NCBI RefSeq assembly: GCF_044324875.1
Contig: NZ_CP172185.1
From: Escherichia coli
GTDB lineage: Bacteria; Pseudomonadota; Gammaproteobacteria; Enterobacterales; Enterobacteriaceae
Reading direction: 5' to 3' (one strand)
Length of the DNA stretch: 64,000 nucleotides
Within the stretch, counting starts at the first letter, position 1. Each line of letters starts with the position of its first letter. The notes under the pieces were generated by a model, which searched no databases, was not told where the DNA came from, and was given only the letters and a program-made list of their open reading frames with translations. Of the stretch, positions 2,348 through 3,152 are shown one piece after another. Made by a program: the position numbers and the translations under genes.

Positions 2348-2684
2348 CATGACTCCTTGCTCATCGCATGAAGACTCCGAGAGTGAACCCCGTTAGAAAG
2401 GGTCACACGCATGCCCCAATACAAAATTATTTGCTCGCCTCTATCGTTGCCATTTCATCAAAAGAGGAAAAGACAATGATAAAAAAGTTACAAATATGTT
2501 AATGAATAAACCAAATTGATCCCGTAATTATATTACGCCGCAAAATCCTTACAATAAACAGGTTTTTATTGAGCAAATTTGCATTTTTCGACAGTGATCA
2601 ATTTATAGCGAAATTGTCACGATCTCACCAATTTGATCTACGACAATTTATCGTGTTTTGCAGATTTTTTTCAAGAATTAAAAA

Positions 2685-2698
2685 TTGATTTATATCAA
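2685..2698. promoter_or_regulatory. FNR-type dyad TTGAT-N4-ATCAA in the cydA upstream region
   Basis: Exact TTGATttatATCAA read in the sequence about 340 bp upstream of the cydA start; the cydAB promoter is known to be FNR/ArcA controlled. Confidence 0.45.
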
Positions 2699-3152
2699 AA
2701 CCAGCCAAATATGTTAATTATGTATAAACCATAGATCATTGGTAATTTTATTGTTAATTTATTGTGAAATATTTATGCAACACAATTATTACAATGAAAA
2801 AGTATAGATAAAAAACCAGTGTTTTATTTAACAGAACCGCCCTATCCACTTTTTATAATACCAATTGATTAGAGTAGCCAATTTGTTGCTATTTTACATA
2901 ACATATTTTTATCAAAGTTAATTGATTGTTGCCTTTATGAGCACCGGCCGTAAGCCCGTTATGTTATTGTTTCATTAGTAATAATCACTTAAATGTATCG
3001 ATGAAACAGGTATGACTTAGCGGGAGTGATTGTTTCTGAGTGAACAGAGACCACTTTCGCCAGATAAATGAAAAATGAGCGATTTTTGCAAGTTAGTTTT
3101 TCTATAGCCGAGTACGCTCAGCGCCTCGCTTGATTACAATGAGGTTGCTGCT

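Follow-up and report, generated by a model that had tools for sequence, protein, structure and literature searches.

Cytochrome bd-I, the product of the cydAB operon, allows respiration at low oxygen and supports colonisation of the gut, and the textbook account of its regulation comes entirely from Escherichia coli K-12. Five promoters under FNR, ArcA and H-NS control have reportedly been described in the K-12 cydAB region (Cotter 1997; Govantes 2000; Myers 2013; Park 2013). Here, we analysed the region upstream of cydA in a different E. coli strain, using a 64,000-nucleotide stretch of contig NZ_CP172185.1 from assembly GCF_044324875.1 (hereafter the window), and compared it with K-12 and with two further described systems. 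In the K-12 sequence U00096.2, where the cydA ATG lies at 770681, FNR sites have been placed at 770333 and 770385 (Myers 2013 supplement). With the K-12 cydAB FNR site being centred at -53.5, promoter P1 falls at 770393. ArcA sites found by chromatin immunoprecipitation sequencing (ChIP-seq) lie at 770081-111, 770260-311 and 770526-556, and the K-12 spacer is listed as H-NS-bound. The second system is that of switched intergenic regions or horizontal regulatory transfer, a concept introduced by Oren et al. 2014, with such regions being detected by Piggy (PMC5890482). The third is a glutamate fermentation cluster with the fumarase FumD described for E. coli O157:H7 (PMC4682846).

Based on our comparison, window positions 2348-2988 probably hold the whole cydAB control region as an allele typical of Escherichia, past 2988 the window probably continues with DNA long resident at this locus in the genus, and the K-12 spacer is the allele that would have been switched. 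The minus strand of window positions 1-2347 encodes the end of cydB and the complete cydA gene (779-2347, cytochrome bd-I subunit I), the latter being 95-100% identical per 100 bp to both K-12 and B2. RefSeq starts cydA at the second ATG of an ATGATG (A at 2347) and the mechanical list of open reading frames (ORFs) at 2350; the spacer that separates cydA from the following ORF is 2351-3152, or 2348-3152 when the RefSeq start is taken. Its guanine-plus-cytosine (GC) content is 31.2% in 2348-2988 and 41.5% in 2989-3152. An earlier reading of the window, made from its letters alone (the sequence-only reading), had described an AT-rich cydA upstream region with an exact FNR dyad at 2685-2698 and, divergent from the minus-strand cydA, a plus-strand ORF of 314 amino acids starting at 3153. 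Both are present as described, and the ORF (ORF314) is the first gene of the block between cydA and sucD.

Homology borders were mapped using sensitive blastn with a word size of 7. The sequence-only reading had proposed an alignment with the K-12 cydA upstream region as its check, and this alignment was run; full-length identity up to 3152 was not found. Homology to K-12 is confined to window positions 1-2723 and 16693 onward, and homology to B2 to 1-2988 and 16695 onward. The 71 nt nearest to cydA (2348-2418, minus strand, -1 to -71), which form the proximal cydA 5' untranslated region (5'UTR), show 96-100% identity in 14 Escherichia, Salmonella and Citrobacter sequences. Directly upstream, identity to K-12 falls abruptly at about 2419-2425 to 67%, 89%, 72% and 78% in successive 100-bp intervals. 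This proximal control region (2419-2723, minus strand) can be aligned with K-12 as a mosaic in which conserved blocks stand between unalignable stretches of near-random identity. The distal control region (2724-2988, minus strand) has no detectable K-12 homology and is kept in all non-K-12-type Escherichia alleles. Identity to B2 amounts to 99-100% until about 2700 and to 71-86% from there to 2988. The breakpoint that had been suspected next to cydA thus does lie inside the cydA control region relative to K-12 (at 2723), but it does not mark a K-12 region truncated by an insertion, because the sequence at 2419-2723 also belongs to another allele (ca. 72% identity) next to cydAB genes that are 95-100% identical in the window strain, K-12 and B2, and because the alignment shows the mosaic pattern.

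To sample outgroups, one genome per species was scanned with a 20-mer from the most conserved block, which returned 14 loci; Salmonella sequences were recovered through MngB homologues. E. albertii carries the cydA-spacer-ORF314 arrangement and aligned over window positions 1860-4203 at 83.9%. On a second E. albertii contig, a spacer of ca. 805 bp separates cydA from an intact ORF314 with 64% protein identity, and a 258-residue ORF and sucD come next. The full arrangement is also found in Escherichia sp. MOD1-EC7003 (95.6%), and Escherichia sp. E1V33 shares the same spacer to 2988 and then jumps to the equivalent of window position 4859 and on to glmS, without the two ORFs that follow cydA in the window. 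In a multiple alignment, 2685-2988 was kept in each non-K-12 Escherichia allele regardless of the neighbouring genes, with conserved blocks at 2805-2833 and 2848-2944 common to E. albertii, E1V33, MOD1-EC7003, E69 and ATCC 25922. The common breakpoint is 2988/2989, where homology with B2, E69 and E1V33 stops and that with E. albertii and MOD1-EC7003 runs on through 2989-3152. E. albertii, MOD1-EC7003, E1V33 and B2 E. coli share the window allele at 92-98% identity, with alignments that reach 2988. Between -72 and -379, the window allele is 93-98% identical to the other Escherichia alleles, 83% to Salmonella and 77-84% to Citrobacter, and the K-12 allele shows 71-77% identity to each of the 13 other enterobacterial sequences. 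Since the Escherichia outgroups share the window allele and K-12 is distant from all of them, the polarity assumed by the sequence-only reading is probably reversed: the window probably carries the genus-typical allele, with K-12 being the outlier.

Population counts were obtained from complete E. coli genomes, 5,425 of which were classified by their identity to the K-12 proximal allele. At least 95% identity was found in 3,180 genomes (3,179 of these at 99% or more) and at most 90% in 2,245, corresponding to 59% K-12-type and 41% window-type alleles. No genome out of the 5,425 fell between the two classes, which indicates that the allele is tightly linked to its cassette, i.e. to the set of accessory genes that separates sucD from cydA. 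The non-K-12 allele is common to O157:H7, B2 strains and the window strain. At least five states of the sucD-cydA interval exist. The K-12 distal spacer next to mngB was present in 3,182 genomes, the two-ORF module of the window's type in 1,138, the TPR-type segment characteristic of B2 in 1,114, the window's LysR-sucD junction in 834 (O157:H7 included) and mngRAB plus rtcB together with the island in 145.

The regulatory sites known from K-12 were then located in the window. The FNR-1 site TTGATTTATATCAA (2685-2698) is an exact TTGAT-N4-ATCAA dyad that aligns with the K-12 FNR site TTGATATTTATCAA at 770333. It is the sole match to this motif in the 64-kb window, with 0.08 expected from shuffles, and is invariant as a dyad across all 14 aligned enterobacterial sequences. 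Its alignment with the K-12 site and this invariance mean that, judged from sequence, it is more than a chance match. The FNR-2 equivalent (2633-2646), which reads TTGTCGTAGATCAA in the direction of cydA, aligns with the K-12 site TTGTTCTCGATCAA at 770385 and overlaps the inferred P1 start (ca. 2638). The two sites are 52 bp apart from centre to centre, as in K-12, and both lie 3 bp further from the ATG than their K-12 counterparts. A promoter scan identified a P1 equivalent, TTGAAA-18-TAAATT, at 2645-2674 on the minus strand, consistent with a start near 2638, and its -10 region GATAAATTGT is constant across the aligned taxa. This position also agrees with FNR-1 being centred at -53.5, the value reported for K-12, from which the start itself was derived. 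A further promoter-like site, TTGTAA-16-TATAAT, scored 10/12 matches at 2527-2554 (minus strand); an overlapping 39-nt block at 2529-2567 is invariant in all 14 taxa, and the second hexamer reads TATATA in K-12 only. On the plus strand of 2351-3152, the scan yielded no sigma-70-like promoter for ORF314.

ArcA boxes were predicted using a position weight matrix (PWM) built from 115 published boxes with a cut-off of 12 bits, which recovers the three K-12 sites at 20.2, 13.0 and 15.3 bits. In the window, seven boxes of at least 12 bits were predicted (0.37 in shuffles), forming three clusters at K-12-equivalent distances from cydA, namely at about -145, -365 to -445 and -550 to -585. The proximal box AAGTTACAAATATGTTAA (2485-2502, plus strand, -155 to -138) is the putative counterpart of K-12 cydA3 and scores 20.5 bits compared with 15.3 bits in K-12 (-152 to -135). 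The middle cluster (2711-2794), the putative counterpart of K-12 cydA2, consists of boxes at 2711-2728, 2740-2757, 2751-2768 and 2777-2794 with scores of 16.2, 16.9, 20.5 and 13.9 bits; the K-12 boxes at -387 to -401 score 12.9, 10.4 and 13.0 bits. The distal pair (2898-2932, -551 to -585), with boxes at 2898-2915 (17.3 bits) and 2915-2932 (14.0 bits), would correspond by position to K-12 cydA1 (-573 to -590). E. albertii, B2 and E1V33 all retain these distal boxes, and those of Citrobacter are located at -577 to -594; the three-cluster layout as a whole also recurs in these four. The sequence-only reading had suggested that distal control elements may be altered. This is borne out for the sequence itself, as the K-12 distal sequence, including the strongest ArcA ChIP-seq site, is absent from the window, but not for the architecture, as FNR sites, P1 hexamers and three clusters of predicted ArcA boxes stand at K-12-equivalent distances. 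As far as predictions go, the K-12 elements all have positional counterparts in the window. H-NS binding to the window spacer is plausible given its GC content of 31%.

We propose that this control region would work much along K-12 lines. By positional homology with K-12, phosphorylated ArcA would activate cydAB, or act as an anti-repressor that relieves silencing, from the three clusters, while FNR would repress anaerobically from FNR-1 and FNR-2, so that cydAB expression would be expected to peak under microaerobiosis. In K-12, a terminator-like hairpin is found at -641 to -660, which suggests that the control region is ca. 640 bp long in both alleles.

The sucD-cydA interval represents a cassette hot spot whose contents, together with the cydA control region, vary by lineage. 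Everything from the sucD terminator to the cydA 5'UTR would be swapped in one piece, through homologous recombination within the conserved sequences on either side, with the 71-nt 5'UTR serving as the left anchor. Three observations point to unit exchange: the sharp borders at functional elements, the near-complete linkage of allele and cassette, and the divergence gradients flanking the K-12 tract. The right border of the variable interval lies in the sucD 3' region with its terminator (16693-16795, minus strand), where homology to K-12 and B2 resumes, and coincides with the sucD terminator hairpin and T-run at 16697-16722. Compared with an E. coli in which mngRAB and the island occur together, K-12 shows 98-99% identity through sucD, mngR, mngA and early mngB and 78% at the mngB 3' end. 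This drop within mngB delimits the K-12 divergent tract as extending from the mngB 3' end to -72 of cydA (positions 5291-6800 of locus L004). A more far-reaching notion, namely that the cydAB control region is inherited with the accessory cassette, giving two non-recombining promoter alleles of which that of K-12 is atypical, is put forward only tentatively, and we are inclined to doubt it.

A number of points weigh against a genus-typical control region in the window and a switched allele in K-12. The ArcA boxes are PWM predictions, the P1 start is a K-12-based inference, and P1 is the one K-12 promoter out of P1-P5 placed on the window by homology. No hits of the 20-mer came from E. fergusonii, E. 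marmotae, E. ruysiae or the Salmonella genomes of GTDB, the first three of which are therefore outside the sample. Further, a donor of the K-12 allele, sought via the mngB 3' end, was not found; this end is 78-81% identical to the other Escherichia alleles and 67-69% to Salmonella and Citrobacter. Both kinds of neighbour also occur beyond the genus, with mngB adjoining cydA in Salmonella, C. sedlakii and one C. amalonaticus strain and the glm cluster adjoining cydA in C. amalonaticus strains. The low GC content of 2989-5084 fits an older horizontal origin of the module. Finally, a frameshifted ORF314 is found in two outgroup genomes, E. albertii NBRC 107761 and MOD1-EC7003, in the latter of which the gene is degraded.

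The alternative that best survives these comparisons is that two ancient alleles are held by balancing selection, each tied to its own cassette and neither derived from the other. Such a scenario would account for the complete or nearly complete linkage of proximal allele and cassette and for the bimodal distribution among genomes, and it would also fit the occurrence of both kinds of neighbour next to cydA in Citrobacter and Salmonella and the K-12 mngB 3' end being closer to Escherichia than to these genera. Nevertheless, we regard it as unlikely, as the K-12 allele was seen in none of the sampled non-E. coli sequences and is almost monomorphic, with 3,179 genomes at 99% or more, whereas the other allele varies by 2-8% in the genus. 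In addition, the alleles of Salmonella and Citrobacter are closer to those of Escherichia than the K-12 allele is.

The account implied by the sequence-only reading, in which a foreign low-GC island was inserted into a K-12-like mngB-cydA spacer, severing distal promoter, ArcA or H-NS elements and bringing a new divergent gene next to cydA, appears very improbable. It would explain why K-12 homology ends inside the control region, why the K-12 distal ArcA site is missing and why 2989-5084 has a GC content of 31-41%. However, an insertion could not have produced the other allele seen in the proximal 300 bp, and ArcA boxes are predicted at the K-12-equivalent distal position. The same spacer is found in E. 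albertii and two other Escherichia species, with ORF314 being equally distant from cydA in E. albertii. Recent transfer from E. coli to these outgroups would require near-identity, in contrast to the observed 84% and a synonymous divergence (dS) of 0.55 for ORF314. The annotation shows neither an integrase nor a tRNA gene at the borders or elsewhere between cydA and sucD, and a search of the spacer gave no long direct repeats. Parts of the block, expected to be absent from sister species in case of a recent island, are shared by E. albertii (two genomes), MOD1-EC7003, E1V33 and C. amalonaticus. Of the proposed foreign low-GC DNA, the two-ORF module and 4601-5084 are low in GC and the metabolic genes stand at 50.5%. 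A recent insertion does not fit with spacer and ORF314 being present in E. albertii. Rapid in-place divergence of an AT-rich, H-NS-bound spacer by point mutations and small indels without any exchange, although conserved protein-binding blocks alternating with diverged spacers resemble site-specific constraint, is scarcely credible given a cydA dS of ca. 0.04 within E. coli next to spacers of near-random identity, two discrete classes in 5,425 genomes with zero intermediates, and divergence borders that are sharp both near 2419 and inside mngB. Like divergence in place, a simple insertion and a simple deletion were discarded as explanations.

The DNA beyond 2988, an old resident of the locus in the reading we favour, begins with a low-GC two-ORF module (2989-4858), after which comes the glutamate fermentation cluster. 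Gene names were taken from the RefSeq annotation of strain TUM14771, which is 99.5% identical over window positions 1-12000. In this strain, cydA is followed by two hypothetical proteins of 314 and 140 residues, glmS, glmL, methylaspartate mutase E, methylaspartate ammonia-lyase, AtuA, DUF4387, a dicarboxylate symporter, a class I fumarase (FumD), cobO, a LysR regulator and sucD. Pfam families on homologous contigs agree with the annotation of the metabolic genes (5085-16130) as a methylaspartate-pathway glutamate fermentation cluster. The corresponding interval holds mngR-mngA-mngB in K-12 and a TPR pseudogene in ATCC 25922 (B2). GC content is 37% in the two-ORF module, 31% in 4601-5084 and 50.5% in the metabolic genes. 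The breakpoint 2988/2989 forms the left end of the module, which starts with the upstream region and leader of ORF314 (2989-3152, plus strand) and continues with ORF314 (3153-4097, plus strand) and a second orphan gene that accompanies it, ORF140 (4178-4600, plus strand).

ORF314 is an orphan protein-coding gene with only five clusters among 5.8 billion proteins. It is located ca. 805 bp from cydA in every retrieved context that reaches cydA (L019 and L022), and both ORFs were found in Escherichia only. Three variants of ORF314 align without gaps over 314 codons with ratios of nonsynonymous to synonymous substitution (dN/dS) of 0.33-0.40, the ratio for ORF140 being 0.29. The gapless alignment and these ratios indicate that both are real, fast-evolving genes, and they are under weak purifying selection. 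Neither had a match above noise in Pfam, NCBIfam, PADLOC, PHROG or the PDB, and an AlphaFold model of ORF314 built on a four-sequence alignment was unusable (mean predicted local distance difference test score of 45).

Several side observations concern the interval and its borders. The last 71 nt of the cydA 5'UTR (2348-2418) are constant across three genera, the sequence immediately upstream diverges freely, and there is no Rfam match; over 2200-5200, Rfam gave no credible family and returned only a microRNA model at E = 0.97. The 291-nt cydA leader folds somewhat better than shuffles (z = -2.2). The 71-nt element could be an as yet unrecognised post-transcriptional control element. The TPR-type E. 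coli E69 retains ca. 100 bp of glmS remnants (L009, 11818-11920) matching window positions 5119-5177 and 5306-5356, and another genome (L024, 6817-8010) carries mngA, mngB, a TPR gene and then cydA. Together, these two cases suggest that the TPR state may derive from a glm-bearing ancestor. Salmonella enterica contigs (L027 and L028) carry glutamate mutase genes, mngR, mngA, mngB and cydA consecutively, so that both cassettes occur together in Salmonella in an order unlike any E. coli state seen.

Elsewhere in the window, a segment of ca. 30% GC at 42649-44303 takes the place of a ca. 6.5-kb RHS element of the otherwise 98%-identical TUM14771. Its small minus-strand ORFs include a CdiI_3 contact-dependent inhibition immunity protein (Pfam E = 3.9e-17) and a weak SMI1/KNR4 match below the curated cut-off, and the segment looks like an orphan immunity-gene cluster. 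Two tandem naRNA4 elements (RF02564) at 23137-23207 and 23232-23302 (77.6 and 86.8 bits) lie in the sdh-suc region and represent the only Rfam family at gathering threshold in the whole window. Further, the sucC-sucB intergenic stretch 18693-18893 shows only 60-78% identity to K-12 when aligned globally, pointing to an indel or a differing repeat element at this site.

Ca. 41% of sequenced E. coli, O157:H7 and B2 included, carry a control allele other than that of K-12, probably the genus-typical one, that travels with the sucD-cydA accessory genes. Because the layout of binding sites is conserved, large qualitative changes in regulation are unlikely. However, predicted site strengths differ between the alleles, which makes a reporter comparison worthwhile. 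Should the more doubtful idea of promoter inheritance with the cassette also hold, the quantitative K-12 rules of microaerobic bd-I induction would not be transferable to O157:H7, to B2 extraintestinal pathogenic E. coli and to further strains with the genus-typical allele, with a possible effect on gut colonisation. K-12 would then be the atypical case, its predicted ArcA boxes being weaker in the middle and proximal clusters and the -10 element being damaged in a promoter-like site otherwise invariant in Escherichia, Salmonella and Citrobacter. More generally, K-12 should not be presumed ancestral when breakpoints beside an "island" are interpreted. As far as we searched, there is no prior statement of the K-12 cydAB control region being an atypical allele, and the island itself is already known.

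Compared with the described systems, the window spacer is closest to the K-12 mngB-cydA spacer of 847 bp. Both serve the same operon and are AT-rich, with two FNR sites 52 bp apart, FNR-1 at -53.5 of P1, ArcA clusters at about -145, -400 and -580 and an identical 71-nt 5'UTR. The two differ in having ca. 72% identity between -72 and -379 and nothing alignable past about -376. The predicted ArcA boxes of the window outscore those of K-12 in the proximal and middle clusters and score lower in the distal cluster, its promoter-like site reads TATAAT instead of TATATA, and its FNR-2 has one more mismatch. The neighbouring gene is a divergent ORF in the window and a convergent mngB with terminators in K-12. 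In case of the O157:H7 glutamate cluster, the same genes lie next to cydA, the two-ORF module is matched at 96% and the LysR-sucD junction is the same. A search of PMC4682846 gave no mention of cydA; the ORF314/ORF140 module and the way in which the island joins the cydA control region were worked out in the present analysis. Finally, the locus resembles switched intergenic regions in that two highly divergent alleles, ca. 72% identical proximally and unalignable distally, are found upstream of one core gene within one species, with flanks that could act as anchors. It differs from them in that the switch comes coupled to an entire cassette of accessory genes, corresponding to the 'upstream' rather than the 'gene-pair' case of Piggy, and in that the transcription-factor site architecture is preserved across the cydA switch.

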